Positions 1-64,000 of a DNA stretch of 64,000 nt are shown one piece after another. The stretch is from Mytilus trossulus. Taxonomy: Eukaryota. The stretch lies in NCBI RefSeq assembly GCF_036588685.1, contig NC_086376.1, forward strand, positions 44,702,001-44,766,000. The letters are read 5' to 3'. The first letter of the stretch is position 1. Every line of letters begins with the position of its first letter. The position numbers and the translations under genes are program-made. Below the pieces are notes generated by a model. The model was not told the origin of the DNA, ran no database searches, and was given only the letters and a program-made list of their open reading frames with translations.

Positions 1-232
1 CATCATCTTCAACAATGTCGAAATGAAAATCACTTCCACTGGTTATTAGTTGAAGCGTTTTACAGTCGTATTTCCCGAAATATTTTTTCACTTCGACGTC
101 CATTTCATGATCGGCGGAAACATACTCATGCCATTCACACGCGGTTAGGGTTCTTCTGTACTCTGGCAAAGAGCTAAGAGCGAGCGTAATTACGGACAGT
201 AAGACGAAACCAATACCAACGAACAGGAATAA
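1..232 (-). CDS. Kv-A voltage-gated K+ channel, exon 2 (S1 and start of S1-S2 loop; truncated by window edge)
   Basis: Reverse strand reads ttttcag|LFLFVGIGFVLLSVITLALSSLPEYRRTLTACEWHEY...KYDC, collinear with Kv-B exon 2; phase 0 matches the exon 1 donor at 2972. Confidence 0.88.
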
Positions 233-539
233 CTGAAAAGAATAAATCAAGGCATGAAAAATATGTTTGCTCAATATTTGCTAGATGATCTAAATGGTGT
301 ACGCTTTTGTTTTATATAACATCGGCAAATCGCAATACTAGTATCATTCATACGAGTTATTTTTTCGGCCAAGATATTCAAATTTCATTTACTCATTAGG
401 TAGATACAAAGAGGACAAACAAAAAAAATCATAGGTTATCGCGTCATCCTTGGGGAACATACATGTAATATAAGAAGTATGTGAGTCGTCAAAACTCCTG
501 TCTTAAAGTTTGTATCATATCCACCCCCTTTTCCTGTGT

Positions 540-1215
540 GCATTCAATAACAAACACGTTTTGCAGGATCTCAATGTTTACATCTTCAAGTCTAAACCTC
601 CTAATTGCACGAGGGTCCGAAATATCGTGAACCTAAATCTATAAATTGGAAATAAAACTTATCGTTTTTGTGCGTAAAACTCATTACATTAACTGCTTTA
701 TAAAGGAAAAAGGTATTGGTAATTCACTTGGAAACTCAATATATACCCTCTCGAGACTTACCAAAGAGGAAATCCTGGATAATCATTGGTCTGTTCTATG
801 TTTTATTGGAATTTGAACCAAAAATGAAGAACTGGGTCTTCCATCACTGTATTGGATACCTAAACTACATAAATGTCCTTACAAACAACGACATATTGCT
901 GGATCTTCCAAGTGTTCCATGAAACCTCTTTCTAAATTATTAACATCCATCTATCAGCAATCAAAGCCGGACTTCAAATTTTTTGTGAAACTGTCTATTT
1001 TAGAATTGGCGTGAATCAGTTATGATACTTAATAATTCCAAAGATATTTTAGAATGCATACAATGTAACTGTCTTTCATCTTGCAATAGTATTAAAACAT
1101 TTTCTACACTTTACACCAGTTTTCAACATTCCAAACTTAAAGATAAATTGAAAGAGTTGGTATTGCTTTGTTTCATAAAAAAAAAATGACCAACGTAAAT
1201 ACAAGTATCTTGTTT
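540..1215 (+). mobile_element. Degenerate Penelope-like retroelement reverse transcriptase fragment (in Kv-A intron)
   Basis: Frameshifted translation gives LTKEEILDNH, LPSLYWIPKLHKCPYKQR, IAGSSKCS.KPLSKLLTSI and LKDKLKELV, typical of Penelope-like RT. Confidence 0.7.
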
Positions 1216-2269
1216 TGCAATCTTTTACGGCTGATTAGTCGTGAGTTTTCTATGAAGTCTTTTCGTCTCATTCGGAGTTCACTTATGATTTGTTTATGGT
1301 CATTTTAGGGTCGGCAGCCTCCTTCGAGGCCGAATAATAATATTTTAAAAAACACTTCCTTGCGAAATGTGTTATCGAAAAATCATTAGCAAATATTTGA
1401 ATAAAATAGATTGAATATTCAAATTGATGTTTGTATAGAAGTTTTAATCCATTTTGGGTTTTTTTTAATTCTTTTCCCTCTTTCTCCATTATTTCTGTAT
1501 TCAAAAAACGCTCATTGAAACCTTTCATAAGCAAATGTTTAAATTTAAAAAAAAAAAAATAATTATAAAAATTGAAATTTTGAATAGAATTTTTCATCCA
1601 TTTAAACTTTTTTAATTTCTTTTTTCCATATTTCTGTATTAAGATGGATTTGTGTTATAAACTCTTAATGATATACATTTCCCTAGCAATTATTTAAATA
1701 AAAAGCCTAAATATTACAATTGATTCTTGTATGCGAAAATGCGAGTTTTTACATATCCAATTTTATGATATAAGCAGAGGAATGAGGGTAAGGCTACCAT
1801 TACCGCTTACCTGAAATAAAATCTAAATCCTGACCTACTTCTCCGAAATTTTTTCCCCTCACTATAAAGTAGCGTTTATTGGAGTGAAATTATGTATAAT
1901 GAATGTGACGAGTTGTGTCGAATTGTATTAAGAAAGGTGTTAGCAAATTGAGAATTTATAAACAATACTTATGATTAAAGATCATTTATAGATTTGAAGA
2001 AATCTTTCTTTGAAGTGCGTCAAATATTCTTGAAATCGAAGAATTTTAAAAACATGAAGACTAAATACTGTAACTTAAAAATAATAATAGCTTAAGGGCA
2101 AACGTGTCATGTTTCAAAATCCAACGAAAAGACTGTTTTTCGTGTCTTGACTTTAATACTTTTGAAAAACTAGTAAACATAAGAATAAGAATAATAAATC
2201 GCTTCCGTACCAAATTATGTTGCTACCTCGTTCAATTTCATCTCATTGTTATTCAATTTAGCTGCTTTC

Positions 2270-2993
2270 CCCTCTTACTTTTACCTTTGTAACCATGTCC
2301 TAATCTTTCTTAACTTTGCTAACTATGTTCTTTCCTTTCGTTTCTTAGCTTTGTTAACCATGTCCTTTCCTTTCGTTTCTTACCTTTGCTAGCCATGACT
2401 TTATCTTCCTTTTCGGTATAAGCTTTGCTAGCCATTTCCTTTCATTTCGTTTCTTACCTTTGTTAACCATGTCCTTTCCTTTCGTTTCTTACTTTTGCTA
2501 GCCATGTCTTTTCCTCTCTTACCTTTGCTAACCATGACTTTATCTTCCTTTTCGGTATAAGCTTTGCTAGCCATTTCCTTTTATTTCGTTTCTTACCTTT
2601 GTTAACCATGTCCTTTCCTTTCGTTTCTTACTTTTGCTAGCCATTTCCTTTCCTTTCCTACCTTTGCTAACCATGTTCTTTCCTTTCGTTTCTCACCTTT
2701 GCTAGCCATTTCCTTTCGTTTCTTACCTTTGCTAGCTATGACCTTTCGTTTCTCACCTTTGCTAGCCATGTCCTTTTCTTTCTTACCTTTGCTAGCCTTG
2801 TCCTTTTCTTTCTTACCTTTGCTAGCCATTTCCTTTCCTTGCCTACCTTTGCTAGCCATGTCCTTTCCTTTCTTACCTTTGCTAGCCATGTCCTTTCCTT
2901 TCTTACCTTTGCTAACCATGTTCTTTCCTTTCTTACCTTTGCTAACCATGTTCTTTCCATTCGTTTCTTACCTTTGCTAACCATGTTCTTTCC
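2270..2993 (-). repeat. ~30-bp minisatellite made from the Kv-A exon 1/intron junction (about 23 units)
   Basis: Unit GAAAGGAAAGRACATGGYTAGCAAAG|GTAA; 139-bp higher-order duplication (2393 vs 2532); the ORF-track ORFs here are repeat translations. Confidence 0.95.
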
Positions 2994-3424
2994 TTATAAT
3001 CAATAATCCTCCAGATACGAGTTTTACCACTGCATGGTTTTGAAGTACCTTTGTCGCTTTGTATAATACTGTTCTTGAACTCTGTTTTAGTTTTGTAACC
3101 TTCTAAAAACTGCATGTAATTCATTAAACAGCATTGTTCCATAAGTTCATGATCTATTTCCCAGTACTCTAATTCCTCTTTGAAAACATTTGGACAAACG
3201 TTTGGAGGCAAGTGTAATTTTCCGGTCTGATAAAACACTAGAATTGATTCAAAACACATGGGTGGTCTATTAAAATGAAGTTCTTCTTGCTTTGTGCTTT
3301 GAGATGCACTTACTAGTTTTCCTAAACGTGAGCTAGGATGAGTAAGAAGGGATTTTCGAGTAACTTCGTATTTAGTCCCAGATATGTTCAAAAGAATTCT
3401 GCTCGAGTTTGTAAAGGGTTCCAT
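2972..3424 (-). CDS. Kv-A exon 1, T1/BTB tetramerisation domain (Shaw/Shab-like)
   Basis: MEPF...LNISGTKYE...FYQTGKLHLPPNVCPNVFKEELEYWEID...CC with HX5CX20CC motif; 151 codons ending WLAK|GTAAG. Confidence 0.9.
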
Positions 3425-17217: not shown

Positions 17218-18324
17218 TCAATACTTCTCTTTGATTTCAGCAGACGCGATGTTCTGTTTGACATCAATCTCACGAACCTTGTTTAATTGCTTTGGTCTTA
17301 CTACTGATTTCTCGCTGGGCCTGTTTCCAATATGAGCGATGCCGTATAACTGTACAAATGTTTCAACAAATATTGGGATAATAAGCGACATCATAATGAT
17401 TCCACACAATGCGCATACAGAGCACGCCATTTTCCCGACAAAAGTTTTAGGCGATAAATCTCCATAACCAACCGTAGTCAAGGTTATTAGTCCTAACCAC
17501 CATCCTTGTGGTATGCTATCAATATTGTCTCTCTCTTCTGCCAAGTAGATGATGTTCGCAAAAATCAATAGAATGATGACAATGTGAAACAGCAATACAA
17601 GAAGGTCCTTCGAATTCTGTCAAAGTGAAAATTTTAGCACCTTTACAGCAGCTAGATGTTGACAATATCGCAATAACCTTATCACTCTTAGAAACTTTAT
17701 AAAATCAACCAGACTTGTGAAAGTAGGCGAAAACTTATATCCACTCTTCATATTAAATATAACAATGTCAACATATGTGCCGATCAGAACTACAAATTCA
17801 ATAACATTTAAAAAATTCATGAAGTAAACTTTTAAACTTGGACAAACCAATAACCTTAATAATAGTTCAACTGTGAAAAAAGCTGTAGCAAGATAATCAA
17901 TCTGGTAGAAAATGTCATTTTTGAAAGTCAACGTTGGGAAAGTCGTTTTTAACGTGTCCTGCTGGCTATCATGTTCAGCTATACTTCCGTTCTGCGTTAC
18001 ATTTGTTGAAGAAGTTGTAATTTGAGGATTTCCTTTATAAGGAATAGATCTTTTACCGACATGCTGTTTTTGAGGCTGAAACTGCTGAGGTGGTTCCTTT
18101 TGGTCAAAATCAAATTGAAACTCGTTTCCTGTTGTAGTTATTTTAAGCAAATGACAGTCGTACTTCATGAAATAGTTTTTAACTTCTGGGTTAATTGCAT
18201 CATCAGCAACTACATATTCATACCATTCACATGTAGTCAGGGTACGTTTGTATTGTGGCAAAGTACTGAGTGCAAGTGTACTAACCGACAGCAAAACGAA
18301 GGCAACACCAACGAATAAGAATAT
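17218..18324 (-). pseudogene. Kv-B exon 2 (S1-S6, TTVGYGD pore) interrupted by one in-frame TGA at 17620-17622
   Basis: ttgcag|IFLFVGV...; S4 KFLRVIRLLRY; VLKFSL*QNSKDLLVLLFHI continues in frame through the pore and S6. Confidence 0.75.
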
Positions 18325-33338: not shown

Positions 33339-34976
33339 GTAGGTATTTTTCAAAGATAGATTCTTTTATTACGAGTCCAATAAGTAGAATACGTATTTCT
33401 GGTAAAGACTAGCTCCATCAAATATCTCTAGACTAAAAAGTTGGGAAAGCCTAATAACAAATAGGTTACCGTGAAGAAGAAAAAAACTTGACAGTTCAAA
33501 CACAATTTTATATCCTTGCACTAGGGAATGACAACCTCCGTTTTAGTAGATTTATATAACTTCTATAATATTCTTCTATCGAGAATACATTTTGAGGCCT
33601 CAATACTTTTAATGTCGTACCTAATTTGGCCTCTTTAACTTTTTATATTCCTGCGTTTATTATGAGTCTAGAAAAGAAAATTTTAATCCTGGTATCTATA
33701 ATGATTTTATTGTAAACTGATATTTTAGAGTCATAATGCTTATGTAATTCATACATATATAATCTACTACTGGCTACTCACTATACATAGGCACTGAATC
33801 GGAGATAAAAGTTCAAAACATTTTAATTCAACTTTTCATTTTGGTAGTAAGTCCTTGACGGATATTCCGAATATCTTTTTATTCATGACAAAGTCAAGGT
33901 TTTATCATATTATATTTTTACGTATGCTATACGACTTGTTGTTTTTTTAAATTTTGCCATTTGATTGGGGACTTTCCGGTTTGAATTTTCCTCGTATTTT
34001 GGGGAATTTACTTTTTACTAATATTCTGCTGCTTTTGTGAAATATAACACTCTATTAAATTTTGTTCTTTTTGTTCAGCTTTTTTTGCATCAATTATTTA
34101 ATAAAAATTTCCTAAGAGGTTTCGCGGAACCATGTGTCTCGTCTGTGATTGCTGCTGTTAGTGTAAAATGTAATGCTTTTCTAAAACGTGAATTAATTTC
34201 CAGTAAGATACAGATTTGAAGGGGAAATTAAAGCTGTCTGTAGATGCTATATTTTCGTATAGAAGATAAACGTCTGTCCATTCTCATCACAATCTTCGAA
34301 GTTTTACAAATGTATCATGTCTAAGAAATGTAACCTCAAATCAGTACTATCTGTCAAAACTTCAGTCCGTCTTTCAGAAAAATACTGAAATTGGTAATAT
34401 ATTTTAAAAGTTTGCTTCATACATTATCTCGTTATCATAGTAAAGGCTTCCGAAAAAGTTTTTACGAAAGTTTGACAAAGAAATTGGTGTGTTTCAAACT
34501 TAACACATGGTTGACCCCATGACTCTGACCTCTTGCTAACTATATTTTGATCATTAACAAGCTGCTGTCAAAATTTTATAAAATCCCATCAAAGTTTGAC
34601 AAAGTTATTGAAAAACTGAAAAACATCGACATCAGACTGATTCTAAATGGTTCTAAATGGTAACGGTAAAAAAACGAAGTCTATTCAACAGTAAAATCAA
34701 GAAAAACAATTAATAAAAAAACAATATTTTCTAAATTTTGCATAGGATGCGATTGTTTATAGAAATAAGTAGACGAGACAACACTCAATCAAAGTCACAA
34801 TGATTAAAAAGAAAACATCATGATAAACGGTCAAAGTACGGATTTTAAACATTGAATTTGGACAGCAGGACCTCGCATCAAATTAACTAAAATCTGCGAT
34901 CAACTGGACAATAACGATCATACACAAAATTGTAGCCATAATTGATAGGTTTATGTCTATTTTTTTATTATTTCAG

Positions 34977-36011
34977 TTGTACCTCATAGTTGGGATAACT
35001 ATCGTGTTACTTTCAGTGGGAGTATTGGCCTTAAGTACGTTGTCGAACTTCAGAAGTCCTGTTCCACTTTGTGAGGCTTTTAAATATATGTCATTTGGGG
35101 AGGCAGAATGCAACATTGCCACAGCATACGCAGACCAAGACTGTAACACGCTAAAAGCGAAATTTAAGGAAGATGAATCCTACATGTACTATATGGACCC
35201 GTCTTTCTATGATGATGACCAAACAAATACTAGTAATAATGATTCTCTTAAACAAAAATTCGAACAATTTCTTGCAAGAAACCATACAGGAGTAACTCAA
35301 AAATCAAAAATGTTTGTCAAAATTGACCATTTTTTTACAGCATTCTTTACAGCTGAGTTTTTGCTAAGGCTGTTTGTGTGTCCCAATATGAAAGCTTTTT
35401 TCACAAGTATCCTCAATTTGATTGAAATGTTCATTTTAGTCGGAACATACGTCGTTATAGCAGTTTCAAATTCGAAATTAAGACCTACATGTACTGATTT
35501 AATGAGTGTCATTGAAGATTTCATGGATTTTATCAAAATGATTCGAGTTATCCGGCTGTTGCGATATTGTCAAAATTTGGCAGCGGTTCGCGTGCTTACC
35601 TTTTCGATAAAGAAAAATGTGAAAGATCTTATCCTACTTTTCTTTCATATATCTCTCATTGTGTTGATCTTTGGAAACATAGTGTACCTTTCTGAGGATA
35701 GACACAACATCGATAGTATACCACAAGGGTGGTGGCTTGGGGTCATTACTATAACAACGGTTGGATTTGGTGATGTGGTCCCAACATCTGTTGCTGGAAA
35801 GATCATATGCTCCGCCTGCGCTTTATGTGGTATTTTAACTCTTGCATTGCTAACTTCCATATTTGTTGAAACTTTCATGGCCTTATATGGTGTGGCACAG
35901 ATTGACACGGTACCAAAAGAAGATCGTATCAGAAGGTGGGATCATTATTCCAAGAAAAATAGAGGAAATGGATGTCCAGATTTCATAGACATAAAGAAAA
36001 CAAAGATTTAA
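34977..36011 (+). CDS. Kv-C exon 2, S1-S6 with TTVGFGD pore (total protein 491 aa)
   Basis: tttcag|LYLIVG...; S4 KMIRVIRLLRY; WWLGVITITTVGFGD; S6 CALCGILTLALLTSIF; intact ORF. Confidence 0.92.
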   Translation: MYLIVGITIVLLSVGVLALSTLSNFRSPVPLCEAFKYMSFGEAECNIATAYADQDCNTLKAKFKEDESYMYYMDPSFYDDDQTNTSNNDSLKQKFEQFLARNHTGVTQKSKMFVKIDHFFTAFFTAEFLLRLFVCPNMKAFFTSILNLIEMFILVGTYVVIAVSNSKLRPTCTDLMSVIEDFMDFIKMIRVIRLLRYCQNLAAVRVLTFSIKKNVKDLILLFFHISLIVLIFGNIVYLSEDRHNIDSIPQGWWLGVITITTVGFGDVVPTSVAGKIICSACALCGILTLALLTSIFVETFMALYGVAQIDTVPKEDRIRRWDHYSKKNRGNGCPDFIDIKKTKI

Positions 36012-41983: not shown

Positions 41984-42655
41984 ACTGTCTGTCTACTCCT
42001 TGCTACAATTGTTGTACGATCTTATAATAACCTAGTTGATACATATATGGTCTTGTTTTGCTTACTAGACTCTAACCCTAGCTACAGTTGTTTTAAGATT
42101 TTATAATAACCTAGTTGATACATACTGTCTGTCTATCTCCTAGCTATAGTTGTTGTAAGATCTTATAATAACCTAGTTGATACATACTGTCTTGTCTACT
42201 CCTAGCTACAGTTGTTGTAAGATCTTATAATAACCTCGTTGATACATACTGTCTGTCTACTCCTAGCTACAGTTGTTGTAAGATCTCATAATAACCTAGT
42301 TGATACATACTGTCTGTCTACTCCTAGCTACAGTTGTTGTAAGATATTATAATAACCTAGTTGATACATACTGTCTGTCTACTCCTAGCTACAGTTGTTG
42401 AAAGATCTCATAATAACCTAGTTGATACATACTGTCTGTCTACTCCTAGCTACAGTTGTTGTACGATATTATAATAACCTAGTTGATACATACTGTCTGT
42501 CTACTCCTAGCTACAGTTGTTGTAAGATCTCATAATAACCTAGTTGATACATACTGTCTGTCTACTCCTAGCTACAGTTGTTGTACGATATTATAATAAC
42601 CTAGTTGATACATACTGTCTGTCTACTCCTAGCTACAGTTGTTGTAAGATTTTAT
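41984..42655. repeat. 61-bp minisatellite, ~11 copies
   Basis: Unit TACTGTCTGTCTACTCCTAGCTACAGTTGTTGTAAGATCTTATAATAACCTAGTTGATACA. Confidence 0.95.
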
Positions 42656-54000: not shown

Positions 54001-56598
54001 GAATGAACATGATGAAGGTATTAGCAAAAAAGAGTAAAAGTATGATAGATCTAAAAAAAAAGTTTCACATAATAAAGTCATCAATATCTATTTTAACTAA
54101 TTAAAATATTAAACAATTTTGCAGCATCAGAGCTGAACATTTTTTGATAAAAAAACAAAGATTCTGCGAGTAATACATGGCAATACATAGTCCCCAACCC
54201 GTTACAAATTCATTGTAATGGAACAAAAATTTGATCTATAATTTGTCATAATGTAAACTACCTAAAAATATCGAGACAAAATCTTCCAGCAAAACGTAAA
54301 AACTTGTTGAATTCTGACTCTCAGTGAATTTTCTATGTCCAAAGACAACAACGCTACACACAGTTATCAGACTGGAACAAAATTGAATCACTAAATTCCA
54401 AAGAAAAGAAAAAAAACATTCAAAATGTCATTTTGTCTTTAAAAAAATGAGTTATTTCCGTTTGAACAGAAGTCTTCTAATGAACAAGTATTTCATCAAA
54501 GTTTAATTCTAGAGAAAGGGCTTCAACTGAACAAAGAGAAAAGCTTAAAGCCTGAATAATGAATTTGACCTGCAACTTGTCATGATAAATCAAATCAAAA
54601 TCTACAAGCACAAAAAGTCTGATTTGCCGAACTGACAGATAGACAGACACGCAGTGCAAACCTAAGTCCACTTAGACGTTAGCCGTTAGGGGACTAAAAA
54701 TCAAAATCTCAAAGTATCAACAAACACGAAAGAGATGCTCTTTTGAGAGGGAACAATGAAGATAATTTTGGAAAAGCTTTCGATTTTTGAAGAAGTAGGG
54801 TTACCTCAAATGTCTTTCTTTTATCTTGTTTAATCTGAGATATAAATCAAAAACTTGTATATGGCACATTATATATGCAAGCATAATCTTTTTTCGTAGA
54901 TAAAAAAAAAGGCCACATTTTTTTTACATACGCTCTAATAGACACAACTTTCTAATCAAGACACTCAATGAGTGATTGGCCCTATAATTGGTTGCATTCC
55001 AATCAAAAGTTTCAAAGAGGAAGATTTTTTGAAGTACAAGTATGTTCACAACTCTGTTTCATATAACAAGTATTTTAAAAGACTGTCATCAATTGAAAGT
55101 ATGTGAAAACCAGGTGCTCCGTAGGGCGCAGCTTTATACAACCGCATTGAACAGTTGGGGCAAATTAAATATGGTCACAATGTTCAAGCTTGATGCTGTC
55201 TGAATTTGGATTGTGATTGAATTTTTGACCAAAAAAAAGGATTTTTGTTACAAAATAAAAGTGGCCAAAGATCAACAAATCGATTTCTTCTGGAAAATTT
55301 TCTAAATTTGAAATTTGAAAAATTAAAAAAAAGAAAAAGAAATCCCTTAATTTTTTTAACAAATCCCCCCCAACTTATTGAAACCCCCCTTTCAGCAATA
55401 ACCCTTAAAACAATCCCATCCTTTCCTTTTTAGTATAGAACCTTGTAGTACAATTACAGAGAGATCCATATACATGTACTTAAACCCAAGTTATTGTTTG
55501 GAAACTAGAAATGTGCTTCTTTTCGGCCCTTTTTTTGGCCCCTTATTGATACATATTTTGGGCAATTAATCCAAAACTAAATCCCAGCCTCCCCTTTGTT
55601 ATATGGAGCATTGTGGTACAGTTTGAAAGAGATCTATACAATTACACACAAGTTATCATCTTGAAATAAGAAAAATGCTTGTTTTGGGCCCCTTTTTGGC
55701 CCTTTATTCCTTACTTTGATTCCATGACCCATTTAAAGGAATCCAAACCTTCTACTTGTGGTTTTAAACATTATGATACAATAACAGAGCAATTTAAATA
55801 CTTATACACAAGTTATTATCCTTAAACTATAAAATGCTTTTTTTGCGGCCCCTTTAGGGCCCTTAATTCCTCAACAGTAGGGACCATCACCCCCAAAATC
55901 GTTCCAAAGCTTCCTTTTGTGGTATTGAACCTTCTGAGATAAAAAATCATAAAGATCTATACACTTTAACTAAAGTTATTGTCCGAAATATAAGTCTACT
56001 TTGATCAATTCTAGTTAAAATGTTAAGGGCCAAAACCTATTACAATAGTGCATTTTATAGATATTTGGGGGCATTTTTTACTAACTTCCCATTATTTGCC
56101 AAGCTAAAATTTTTTACTTGTCTTAGAACTGATATGCACCTTTAAAATAATCCTAAAAGGTTAAAAAAAAAATATGATCTTGAGAGAAAACACCTACTGA
56201 GTACATGTACTACATGCAAGTTATCTAATACATCTGTTGCACGAATCTCTCTGGCAACCTGCCAAAAGGTAAAAAGTATGTCAAAATGCATTTTTCTTTT
56301 TTTTTATAATGTTCTTTGCAAAATATAACAAGATAATGCTATATTTAAGAGATATATCAATTATTCAGACCTTTAAAAAGTACCTAAATTTTGGTGATTT
56401 TTTGCATTATTTTTTTATAATTCACAAATATGCAAATGAGGCTGTTAATTGGAAAATAGTGTGAATTAACCAAACAAAATGTTTTATCTTAATTCCTAAA
56501 TACCCAAAGATTTTGGACATATATATAATGTTGCAAAGTTATTACTACCAATTTGGACGAAATTTGAGATTTTGCATGGTTTTATGGCAGATTGACTC
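51077..56598. mobile_element. Region bounded by GAG-starting inverted termini (Sola-like), filled with nested repeats
   Basis: Left TTAA|GAGCCAGTCTGTGATAAAACCATGCAAAAT vs right end reverse complement CTAA|GAGTCAATCTGCCATAAAACCATGCAAAAT. Confidence 0.55.
52494..53400. mobile_element. Helentron/HINE-like non-autonomous element with internal ~130-bp tandem repeats
   Basis: Sub-terminal inverted motif TTTATACGACCGCA / TGCGGTTGTATAAAA; four internal repeats; GAC microsatellite near end; related copy ~55108-55990. Confidence 0.65.
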
Positions 56599-56602
56599 TT
56601 AG

Positions 56603-56953
56603 AAAGAATGTAAGATAATTCATACAACGGCCTTTGAAAAATTGGAAAGATATCTTCAAGTCTATTAGGATATGAAAGTCTTCTCAAAACTATACAAAGC
56701 CCTTCTATGCCACTTGCAACTGTTCCATTGTTACATACAATTTTTGGTGGGATTCCCAAAGCAACACGCAGTCTATCAATGTCCTGTTTCTCAAATCGAA
56801 CATAAATTTGCATTGTTCATTAGTGAGAACCTCCAAATTAATTTTTTCTCCACTGTATACATTGCCGTGAGACTGGTTCATTTCAGTTGAAATAAGGACC
56901 AACTCGTCCTTATCTTCAATAGCAGACAACAAGAGAATCTCGGCAGAAGACAT
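56603..56953 (-). pseudogene. PIF/Harbinger-superfamily transposase N-terminal fragment (frameshifted, truncated)
   Basis: EQCKFM/RFEKQDIDRLRVALGIP...NGTVASGIEGLCIVLRRLSYPNRLED HTH-region motif. Confidence 0.75.
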
Positions 56954-57528
56954 ATTGAGCAAGAAGAAAGTGAGGAATAAGCCAGCCAATGAAATTGTTG
57001 TTTTCAAAACCGCAATTCAGTCATACAAGTATCCGTACACGTAAAAAAATCTCAAGCAAGCACTAGATATTTCTTCCGTGTACGTCTAGCTACACGTACC
57101 AGTACACGTACGACAGCGTAATCTCAACCAAAAAATCTAGACGGAGATTTTCATTATATCTTTAATCGTGTATTCACATATACATGATATATATAATTGT
57201 TTGTATTTTACTACATGTACCATATGTATAGCAAAATGTTTATCCATTCGGTCATTACCATTTATTGTAAATGCGATTGTGCCAATAAAAATATTGTCTA
57301 TTGCCTATTGTCTATAATGTCTGTTGTTAGATTGCTGTTTGTTTGTGTGTTTGTTATCAATCGAAGTAATAGTTATGTTTTGTTTGTTTTTTATGCAAGT
57401 TGGTATTTAGTCATATCCTATCTTTAAAAAAATATTCTTGTGAAAACTTGGGCTCTCTTGTCCTTCCGCTTTCACTTTCGTTTTGGATTTTCCAAACTTT
57501 CCAAATTTTCTTCGAAGCATCTGAAGCA

Positions 57529-59216: not shown

Positions 59217-59822
59217 GTAAGTAGGTATTTAATATATCAGTAAAGGTTTGACACAAACTAAATTAAAAATAAACTGACTATGCTGTGGCTAAAAAAGAGA
59301 AATACAAGTAGACAGACTATAGAACACAAAACACAACAGTGAAAACTAAAAACTAAACAACACGAACCAAACCAAAAACTGGTGATGATTTCAGGTGTAG
59401 GGTTAGCAGATACTGCTCCACATGTGTCACATGTGTTGTTGCTGACATTGGAGTACAAACCTGGTAACTAGTCTAATTCAGTTGGTCACATTTGTGAAAA
59501 GGGGTCTGGATTTTGTCACAACATATCCACTATCATCTGTGAAATAGATATTTCATTGAACATGTGTCAAATAAACTCACCATAGACACAAAGATATTGC
59601 AGTTGCGCCCTAAAACTGTCTAAAATAATCTAATTTTTTTTAAATTTGTTTTGCATCTTTTATCAATTTCTGGTCAATAAGTCTTGATTTGCAGACTTAA
59701 AAAAATAAATAAAAGTCAGGAGATAAAATCTAAGTTCTATTGTTTAAGATATGTTTATACATATCTTTATACATACGCAATCATGTATCATGAATCTACC
59801 ATATGAATTATTTTTTTAACAG

Positions 59823-60340
59823 ATTTTTCGGCATCAGTAAAAGTGATAGTTCTCAAACTTACACTGCAAATGTGATTCCTGCTGGGGGTGCTGAAGATAA
59901 CCCACATCAATCAACCATTACAGAGGCCACAACGCCAAAAGATTCAAGGAGAGAGACTGGTGATAGAAATGAAGGAAATGAGGATTCATCTACAACAGTT
60001 GTTTACAAAGACACAGGAAAAGCCATGAAAGCTAGCAATTCTCAAACTTCTCAATCCTTACAAGCTACAGGTGGAATAGGAGCTAATTCACCAGAGCAAA
60101 GTCCAAACCTATCTGTAAACACACAATATATTATCTCCCCTGATGAAAAAAATAAGAGACCAGGTTTAGCCCTCATCATCACAGGACAGAAATTTGCAAT
60201 AGGGAATGGGGATGTCAGAAATGGTGCTGAAAAAGATCTGAGGAATATGTTTGAAATCTTTTACAATTTAGATTTTGAGGTTAGATGGGAACCATTTGCC
60301 AATAGAACTACAGAAGATTTAAAAAATGAATTAATTAAAT
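59823..60340 (+). CDS. Caspase exon: low-complexity prodomain and start of large subunit
   Basis: RPGLALII...F...RNGAEKDLRNM..IF..LDFEV; ends |GTAAGT. Confidence 0.88.
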
Positions 60341-60990
60341 GTAAGTATATTATTATGTAGTTTAAGGCTGGAAATAGAGCAAAAAACCAATGTGAAGCTA
60401 TTACTAAAATAATTTAGGGGAGCAAAGTCAGAAGGACCTTAACAGAACAGATATCTATTTGTCTAAAGGAGAAGAGCCAGACACCACAATAAAGACCCTT
60501 GTTAGGCAAGTCATATCTCTGTGTCAACTGTTTATCTATATTATGTGAACATTTTATGGTGTTCCAGGGTTGGCTGGATAAGCTCCTGCAGATACACTTG
60601 ACATTATTGAGACAGAAAATTTTAAAAGAACTCAAATTCAAAAAAACCCAGCACAATTGTTTTTAGTCAAAAATGTATGTTTAAATGTTTTTTTAACATC
60701 AGAAAAAGCATTGTGAGTTGATAGCTAAATTTAATTGTTAATACCCACACTTGAAGAAAGGGGTACACTTGTTTACCGCTGTCTGTCCATTATTCTGGCA
60801 AACTATGCCGGCTTCATGAAATGTAGTATCAAGCTGTCAGTGATGCATTTTTACTTTTATTTCTCATCAACTTAATTTTTTCAAAATACTTTTAATAGTG
60901 AGAAACTGGCAACAGTAAATCTTGTGTTTATAATAAACAATCTTGTATAAGTTTCAAATAACTAGTGTATATAGTAATGTTTCTCTTCAG

Positions 60991-62170: not shown

Positions 62171-62337
62171 TTTTTGTATACAAAGGGTGCAGAAAGGAAT
62201 AAATTGACTAAGAATTCGAGAAATGCCTGTAATCAATTATCAGCTGTTCTAGAGATTAAATGCTACTATTTATATGTCATCATAGTAAAACTTTTTTTTA
62301 TTGATTTTATAAATGTTTTGTATTACTTATTTTCCAG

Positions 62338-62575
62338 GCTTGTCGATCCAGAAATAACATCAAGTCAGTAGACAAAGGAGTCGATATTAGGGTAGCACAA
62401 AAACAAGACACCCTTATAAAACAGACAAATGACTTCTTCTCCACAATGGATGTACGTCACAAGGAAGAGACAAGTGAAGATGTGACCAAAACTATATATG
62501 ATACAGTCACAATGAAAGACATGCTACTGACGCCTTGTTATCAAGACTTTATGGTTGCTTTTGCTAGCACTGAAG
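62338..62575 (+). CDS. Caspase exon with catalytic Cys, linker and start of small subunit
   Basis: ttccag|ACRSRNN...PCYQDFMVAFASTE G|GT; gene continues past this point. Confidence 0.92.
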
Positions 62576-64000
62576 GTATAATTTTTACAAGTATAGAAAA
62601 TCAGTTCAGAGTTCGTATTTACCACTGTTTTTGGGATACGATTGCTGTCAAGCAATCTGTAGACTTTTACCATTGACCCTATGACACACTCCCTCACGTC
62701 ATTCGTTTTATTCTAAACATTCGGCAACATCTCAGATTCTTATGATTGTCTTGCTTTAAAAGGTAAAAACAAGCAAAACAATTGAACATAAACAACTTTC
62801 CTGTAATGTTTTACTCATAATCTTCATGTGTGATATTTTCCTTGACTTATATGCGTGTTTTTAACAATACGGAAAATCAGAATTAAACAGTATTTATATT
62901 AAGTGTTTTTATAAATTTAGAAACACGTCAGAGGGAATTCCCAAATTTTGATAACTTGCGAGAGTTCTCTGAAAGCCGATCGATAATTCTATTTCTGTCA
63001 CAAGAACTGAAGTGGAGTATTTCTATATTTTACCGTTATGAAACTGATATTTGATACTGTACTCTCATAAAGAAATGGAGAACCATTCATCATATCATTT
63101 AATAAACGTTCTTGTTCCAAATCGCAAGTCGCGGTTTGTTTATGTATTAATGTCCATGCGTGGTCTCACTAATTAGAGACAAAAAGAATTGTAGAGACAA
63201 AAAGCGTCAAGAAGCGACAAGAAGAATAATATTAGCAACAAGAAACTATTTAGCGACAAGAACACATTTTTTTATTTATATTACTTATTCGAAATAAATA
63301 TTAAAAAAATATGCAAAAGAAAACAATTTCAACGACAGAAAAGTTAATTTTGATAGGGGGAAAAATGAAACTTGTAAATCTAATTCAGTTGCTACATTTA
63401 TTTACATGATATTTTATAAGGTATCACAGGAAGTATATTTTGTCTTTTTATTTGTTTTTAAAACCATTTTTGTACAATATATAATTAACTTGCAAAATGC
63501 ATTATTTGTGCATAATAGTCCAGTAAATACATACACAAATTGTGAAATACAAATTAAGAACTGAAATCAAACAAGAGGAAAACATAATTAAAATGTGAAT
63601 ATTTTTCATCATTTTATTTAGTGTATTGTCTCATTGAAAGATATTTATCATGTTTATGCATATAGATTGAAGATTAAAGGAAACTGATGACAATCTTGAG
63701 TTTTCAACAGGTGTTCACTATTCGGTACAATAATTTTATATTCTGGTGCGTGTAATTGATGAAGGTGTTAATGGATGTTATTGTTGCATTAAAACAAAGG
63801 ACACGCACCTAGTTAATCTGATTTGTTGCTCTTAATTGTGTATTACCTTAGAGTGAAGCCACAGCTAATGTTGGTCCTATCAGGAAAAATTAATTGTACA
63901 GTTAGGAAGGAAATAATATTTCATATTTTTGTTTTATTAAATCCTTCAAAAGGAAGGTGACAAATCTTTGTTTTTATTTTCATTTTATAGCGTTTACATT

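Follow-up and report, generated by a model that had tools for sequence, protein, structure and literature searches.

The window analysed here (G000:C4:44702001-44766000; 64,000 nt) is a stretch of the 1.3-Gb Mytilus trossulus genome that covers part of a tandem cluster of four two-exon voltage-gated potassium channel genes, Kv-A, Kv-B, Kv-C and Kv-D. Kv-A and Kv-B are encoded on the minus strand and Kv-C on the plus strand; Kv-D lies approximately 5 kb past the left edge of the window. Judged by their titles or the opening of their abstracts, none of the papers returned by a literature search on Kv expansion in Mytilus deals with this locus. The following features of Kv-A are numbered from the first nucleotide of the window.

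1..242, minus strand: acceptor TTCTTTTCAG at 242-233, followed by the beginning of exon 2, which encodes S1-S6, the pore and the C-tail in an open frame.
540..1520, no strand assigned: high-copy dispersed repeat in the Kv-A intron; summed contig depth up to 4e5 in run X8 versus about 2-4 on exons.
About 2279..2993, minus strand: junction-spanning minisatellite with 22 units, each 29-39 nt long; purines make up 78% of its sense strand.
2383..2661, minus strand: 139-nt higher-order block duplication comprising units 12-15 and 16-19, with unit pairs 139 nt apart.
2901..2909, minus strand: pseudo-donor 3, identical to donor 1, 35 nt past the stop; the intron would start at 2906.
2931..2939, minus strand: pseudo-donor 2, identical to donor 1, 5 nt past the stop; the intron would start at 2936.
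2942..2944, minus strand: in-frame TAG reached on read-through of donor 1, closing a 160-aa T1-only frame.
2966..2974, minus strand: authentic 5′ splice donor AAG/GTAAGA (the slash marks the exon-intron junction), first intron base 2971, at the same junction position as in paralogues B, C and D.
2972..3424, minus strand: coding exon 1 (151 codons) with the T1/BTB domain (BTB_2, E=3e-22), linker and pre-S1 helix, ending in WLAK.
3128..3214, minus strand: intact HX5CX20CC zinc-binding motif of non-Shaker T1 domains (H71, C77, C98, C99).

The T1 domain encoded by Kv-A exon 1 is closest to Kv3/Shaw (top solved relatives Kv3.1/Shaw T1, E=5e-19). BTB_2 covers residues 10-98, and S1 is encoded by exon 2. 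According to two reports, the HX5CX20CC motif is required for Kv3/Kv4 T1 assembly (bioRxiv 10.1101/2021.11.09.467962) and T1 has a role in Kv assembly (PMC4940211). Exon 2 begins at 232 and consists of 364 open codons plus a stop, ending beyond the window edge at G000:C4:44701138. It matches Kv2.1 and other Kv channels (E=1e-32), Kv2.1 being the closest among solved structures. Joined via the donor at 2971, the two exons meet in phase 0 and encode a protein of 515 aa.

The four channels of the cluster are divergent. In place of the PVP gate motif, S6 has TIP/IIP/LTS, and basic residues are fewer in S4 (1-232, 17218-18324, 34887-36011 and L031), presumably a resemblance to regulatory ('silent') Kv subunits. 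Exon 2 of Kv-B contains an in-frame TGA (17620-17622, minus strand) in the S4-S5 linker, where its relatives have Arg; the frame continues behind it for another 133 codons with pore and S6, and the NCBI protein P0005 (385 aa) ends at the TGA, which is either a null allele or an assembly error. The genome holds 57 matches to the T1 exon, i.e. a large Kv/T1 family. Other features in the window include a second minisatellite at 42077-42655 (61-bp unit, 9.5 copies, 94% matches), caspase-like exons at 59794-60360 and 62305-62676 on the plus strand (the first with a weak Peptidase_C14 match, E=1.4e-4, the second with none) and two overlapping short frames at 56496-57016 on the minus strand, which look like a broken Harbinger-type transposase but have no supporting Pfam match. 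Two further tandem repeats lie near T1 exons, both away from the exon 3′ end: a 396-bp repeat upstream of the Kv-D T1 exon (L003:2434-3438) and a 37-bp array of 22.5 copies near another T1 exon on C8 (L013:2506-3333).

The minisatellite at the 3′ end of Kv-A exon 1 was recognized by Tandem Repeats Finder at 2306-2995 with a period of 30, 20.9 copies and 78% matches. Cutting the array at each junction gives 22 units and 21 spacings, ten of 30 nt, eight of 35 nt, two of 39 nt and one of 29 nt. A preliminary description of this DNA had proposed that the unit is made from the end of exon 1 and the start of the intron, and that the junction is single-copy in the paralogues. Both proposals agree with our results: each unit joins 17-22 coding bases from the very end of Kv-A exon 1 to the bases that open the intron, and the phase-0 junction is present once in Kv-B (WLSK), Kv-C (LLSK) and also in Kv-D (WIAK, just outside the window). 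The repetition of AAG/GTRRG was described correctly as well, but the number given, about 16 units, has to be corrected to 15 of 22, namely the true donor at 2971 and 14 extra copies. Units 1-3 have identical 22 exon bases followed by GTAAGAAA.

Half of the units (11/22) carry the identical AAG/GTAAGA. GT is kept in 18 units and replaced by CT or TT in four, and the G at -1 is missing in two. With the rest of the window as background, about 0.06 AGGTRRG motifs are expected per 726 nt on one strand versus the 15 seen. The donors of the array are strong, with seven of nine matches to the U1 consensus, and they decay in the distal units. The G at +1 was lost in 4 of the 22 units, which are not independent of each other, as against five neighbouring exon-derived positions that are invariant. 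The donor positions have thus been preserved no better than those around them, and we counted this in favour of the array being a passenger of the gene.

The higher-order duplication includes a 62-nt exact match at offset 139. GAAAG words occur 26 times in the array versus six times in the remaining 2051 nt of the intron, and we take this purine-rich composition to be splicing-enhancer-like. RNA folding predicted a minimum-energy z of -2.1 for the array, but an almost unpaired centroid and a largely unstructured region; a structure masking the donors was rejected on account of this centroid. An AATAAA at 2585 was taken as a chance occurrence, with one such word in 688 nt versus two in the remaining 2051-nt intron. 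Among the best 30 of the 57 genomic T1-exon matches, Kv-A alone has a tandem array at the exon end. When the array was sought elsewhere in the genome, just a CTTTC microsatellite on C7 matched, so that at this sensitivity the array does not belong to a dispersed satellite family; a pattern scan of metagenome contigs gave 0 matches.

The first spacing of the array is 35 nt, and the eight that follow are 30 nt, seven of these being open in frame. Spacing and translation bear out the earlier statement that the first unit is 35 nt long and brings in the TAG at 2942-2944, and the distance between this stop and the junction of the second donor, put at about 5 nt, is indeed 5 nt. Equally, the prediction that any downstream donor leads to a T1-only protein of 160 aa holds for 17 of 17 downstream GT sites when joined to the acceptor at 232, and donor 1 yields 515 aa. 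For junctions beyond donor 3, the distance from the stop is 65 nt or more. The same TAG closes all eight 35-nt spacings and results from an out-of-frame reading of the Leu-Ala codons of the exon itself, so that the stop in the first unit is no special feature. Judged by these frames, it is a by-product of unit length without special design as a switch. Nine of the ten 30-nt spacings would be open 10-residue repeats.

The 160-aa frame keeps a complete T1 domain with its zinc motif intact and contains no membrane segments. Provided that such a protein is made, it could plausibly co-assemble with channel subunits. Isolated T1 domains act as dominant negatives on Kv assembly, which may extend to this divergent channel family; a literature search for T1 N-terminal fragments as dominant negatives found nothing demonstrating such action. 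Nonsense-mediated decay acts on stops located more than 50-55 nt upstream of a junction, and donor 3 is the last donor of the array inside this boundary. No paper combining decay or exon junction complexes with molluscs was found in the literature searched.

Contigs of runs X1, X2, X6 and X8, which bear four organism labels and come from four studies, match the array DNA. X1, X2 and X6 cover both flanks, X1 possibly being close to the source. One gapless X8 contig spans 2880-3236, X2 is identical over 2929-2993, and X7 shows a single difference over 2927-3106; thus, the 35-nt first unit is common to these runs. The samples vary within the array, X2 by a 5-nt deletion at 2371 and unit substitutions and X6 by substitutions. 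Contigs cannot give copy number, and the value of 22 is that of the present assembly. At 3090-3236, X6 and X8 also have divergent exon 1 contigs; as these match paralogue B, the allele counts do not include them. Two proteins of 160 aa, the M. edulis model XP_071170989.1 and an ENA entry, have tails that resemble the distal 35-nt units seen here. We infer that the duplication is older than the divergence from the M. edulis/galloprovincialis lineage and that the ancestral unit was 35 nt long.

An assembly artefact in long reads had been named in the preliminary description as an outcome that would overturn its interpretation, and the occurrence of the array in four other DNA runs speaks against it. 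Repeats carry a general risk of misassembly, and nothing more than this points to an artefact. The units have diverged and show higher-order structure, the contigs of four independent runs with four organism labels include both flanks, and the separate annotation of M. edulis has a second copy in its protein tail. As regards the existence of the array, an artefact is thereby refuted, and we consider it extremely improbable overall.

The question of which donor is used can be approached from exon 2. Of the true donor and the 17 downstream GT sites, donor 1 alone makes this exon coding, and the exon is open here and in seven other listed proteins (P0001, P0020, P0022-P0025 and P0053), a count biased to intact frames by a listing that took only open frames of 200 aa or more. 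Compared with the galloprovincialis-type allele, S1 differs at 0 of 26 residues and S2-S6 at 8-9 of 193, the extracellular S1-S2 loop at 12-13 of 109 and the C-tail at 11-12 of 36. Over 425 bases, two X8 contigs show 26 differences; the six other alleles differ at only 5-7 residues there. With about 78% replacements expected under neutrality, 6 of 26 gives a p of about 4e-9, assuming that the X8 allele encodes like those proteins. Overall dN/dS between Kv-A and Kv-B is 0.19, and the value for the membrane part is 0.10. An exon that depends on donor 1 for its reading frame has thus stayed intact and under constraint since the array arose, which favours donor 1 as the likely main donor. In one contig of run X7 (depth 3.6), an in-frame deletion of 30 nt affects the Kv-A S1-S2 loop (L036:1932-1961, in exon 2, left of the window).

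Our preferred reading, which we hold to be probable, is that the Kv-A array is a passenger, a junction-spanning minisatellite that copied the exon 1 donor 21 times and whose first donor still makes the full-length channel mRNA. Its origin would be a duplication of 35 nt, caused by slippage at AAGGAAAG-like microhomology and older than the M. edulis/galloprovincialis split. Subsequent slips of 5 nt would have produced the 30-nt units, along with ordinary minisatellite turnover. In splicing, the most upstream donor would win, with a minor leak to donors 2-3. This leak would give rise to a little T1-only mRNA escaping junction-dependent decay, and any leak at donors 4 and beyond to decay-sensitive mRNA if the 50-55 nt rule applies in molluscs.

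Gene models and protein evolution leave some room for another explanation, in which the array burdens the gene: its strong donors, spaced by 30-35 nt, would divert much of the splicing downstream or to read-through, and Kv-A would be weakened, with most of its RNA containing the stop, and under relaxed selection. NCBI holds T1-only models of 160 aa for Kv-A in two species, P0015 in Mytilus trossulus and P0016 (XP_071170989.1) in M. edulis, and both annotations have all three paralogues, B, C and D, as joined models of two exons. No exon 2 protein of this genome was found for Kv-A among the proteins listed. The T1-only models could stem from RNA spliced at a downstream donor, from unspliced RNA or from trouble of the predictor at a masked repeat, and as artefacts of repeat masking or prediction they would lose their weight for impaired splicing. 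Moreover, donor 1 is the joining point in VDI51260.1, the model for M. galloprovincialis, and the model for M. coruscus exits exon 1 at the same residue but carries 80 extra residues. RNA contributed little: a run search listed no RNA run with this DNA, which says nothing about expression, and in runs X19 and X20 (guessed to be RNA) the pieces listed on the gene were four short exon 1 contigs of depth 2, none of the 15 joints listed out of 21 linking exon 1 to exon 2. Logan/ENA proteins in all four paralogue clusters resemble single-exon pieces by length and start and thus hold no information on splicing.

Replacement changes point in the same direction as the T1-only models. Kv-A has accumulated 29 lineage-specific residue changes here versus nine in the galloprovincialis line (p=0.002), including Y50H and A480P in columns that are invariant in the other 14 proteins, whereas changes are balanced in Kv-B (19/13), Kv-C (8/8) and Kv-D (13/11). 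These are residue counts without branch-specific dS, polarised by M. coruscus for Kv-A and by M. californianus for C and D, with B compared with M. edulis. Four of the Kv-A changes are ancestral on the second haplotype in run X1, which means that part of the excess is polymorphism and tells against a weakened gene. The two haplotypes of run X1 were compared at 3209-3327, where 10 of 119 bases are different and six of eight classified codons are replacements.

Further arguments for a burden are the intron-proximal preference of strong duplicated donors described in PMC3413131, the 78% purine sense strand with its 26 GAAAG words, which could favour downstream donors, and the premature TGA of the neighbouring Kv-B in this assembly, from which the cluster would seem able to tolerate loss. 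Against these stands a membrane core that is constrained and open in all listed alleles. Taken together, a burdened Kv-A appears unlikely, but it is not negligible as a competitor of the passenger array.

A T1-only protein might, on the other hand, be useful to the mussel. The array could be an adaptive rheostat in which regulated or length-dependent use of donors 2-3 supplies a stable T1-only protein suppressing the channels of the four-gene cluster. All downstream donors lead to one defined 160-aa product with the zinc motif intact, and the two T1-only NCBI models are exactly this product. The 35-nt first spacing is present in X2, X7, X8 and, by the protein tail, in M. edulis, despite the mostly open 30-nt spacings after it; shared ancestry accounts for this. 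The tail itself is not conserved, four of its nine residues differing from the M. edulis model, and the donors decay in the distal units. In known cases of this kind of repeat, the distal units have no influence. Neither expression nor protein evidence for such a rheostat was found, and the dominant-negative action of T1 alone is presumed for this family. Adaptive control of this type is, in our estimation, very improbable.

Slightly less improbable, and still a long shot, is a version restricted to the first units, in which donor 2 or 3 is the major site in edulis-complex mussels and a T1-only protein with intact zinc motif, made from decay-escaping mRNA besides or instead of a channel subunit, dampens the Kv cluster at a level set by these units. 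If true, a junction-spanning repeat would have turned regulator, and the T1-only NCBI models in two species would be explained.

In its structure, the Kv-A array is a junction-spanning ('mirage', F7/CBS-type) minisatellite: units of 10-100 bp are arranged head-to-tail, the first unit spans the authentic boundary, and the splice signal is reiterated in the intron. Most likely, it adds an example in a bivalve ion-channel gene to a repeat type that is already known, set slightly apart by its one defined T1-only product and by two database models that contain T1 alone. A probable annotation problem goes along with it, in that a 515-aa channel appears as a 160-aa protein in two databases.

The closest counterpart is the 31-bp VNTR in intron 13 of human CBS, c.1444_1467+7(16_21), which consists of 24 exon and 7 intron bases in 16-21 copies (PMC2630376). 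It has nearly the same unit make-up (approximately 30 bp) and copy number as the Kv-A array and likewise reiterates the donor in each unit. CBS units are invariably 31 bp, whereas the Kv-A array mixes units of 30, 35 and 39 nt, the first of them frame-shifting. As summarised in PMC1557585, CBS splicing involves the first donor and the two that follow it; two pseudo-donors are thus known to be used in CBS, while use of those in Kv-A would be a prediction. The same source (Borensztajn et al. 2006, PMC1557585) shows for the 37-bp VNTR of human F7 intron 7, with its 5-9 identical donors, that splicing takes place at the first one exclusively, even against strengthened pseudo-sites of CV 91. F7 shares with Kv-A a first unit that spans the exon/intron boundary and identical pseudo-donors behind it. 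In that text, F7 has a weaker donor (CV 74), 5-9 copies and four exon bases per unit, as compared with 14 extra strong AAG/GTRRG sites, purine-rich units and 17-22 exon bases in Kv-A. Exclusive use of the first donor is a demonstrated feature of F7; for Kv-A, its use is inferred indirectly.

Among invertebrates, amphioxus 'mirage' minisatellites have been described in Adh3 and in the globins BflGb6 and BflGb9, where RT-PCR suggests normal splicing (PMC3087553). Like the Kv-A array, they arose by duplicating an exon-intron boundary in tandem, vary in unit length and undergo turnover, but they belong to another phylum and other genes and have no truncated assembly domain at stake. As summarised in PMC1557585, human 6-16 (IFI6) constitutively uses its first three donors, and lamin B2 and PDGFA just the first; like Kv-A, these genes reiterate the donor 10-25 times in the next intron. 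In none of the human cases does splicing go further than the third donor, and on that pattern any units past the third would have no influence. All splicing precedents come from mammals or amphioxus. Human splicing-modulating tandem repeats (spl-TR/ABCA7-type VNTR) offer a design, outlined in PMC10078293, that pairs repeat length with isoform ratio. For the Kv-A array, the role as a tuner of isoform ratio that had been suggested earlier is not supported by our analysis.

Duplicated globin donors follow a different rule from F7. According to PMC3413131, use of the downstream site rises beyond a spacing of about 30 nt and reaches about 100% at spacings of at least 45 nt. With strong sites spaced by 30-35 nt, Kv-A lies at the threshold of this rule, and for that reason diversion of splicing by the array is not negligible. 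If the downstream donors were heavily used, a minisatellite would be throttling or repurposing a channel subunit. At this threshold, the first-donor-wins rule of F7 and the intron-proximal-wins rule of the globin duplications disagree, and the Kv-A array is thus of modest use as a natural experiment on how non-vertebrates choose among 5′ splice sites.
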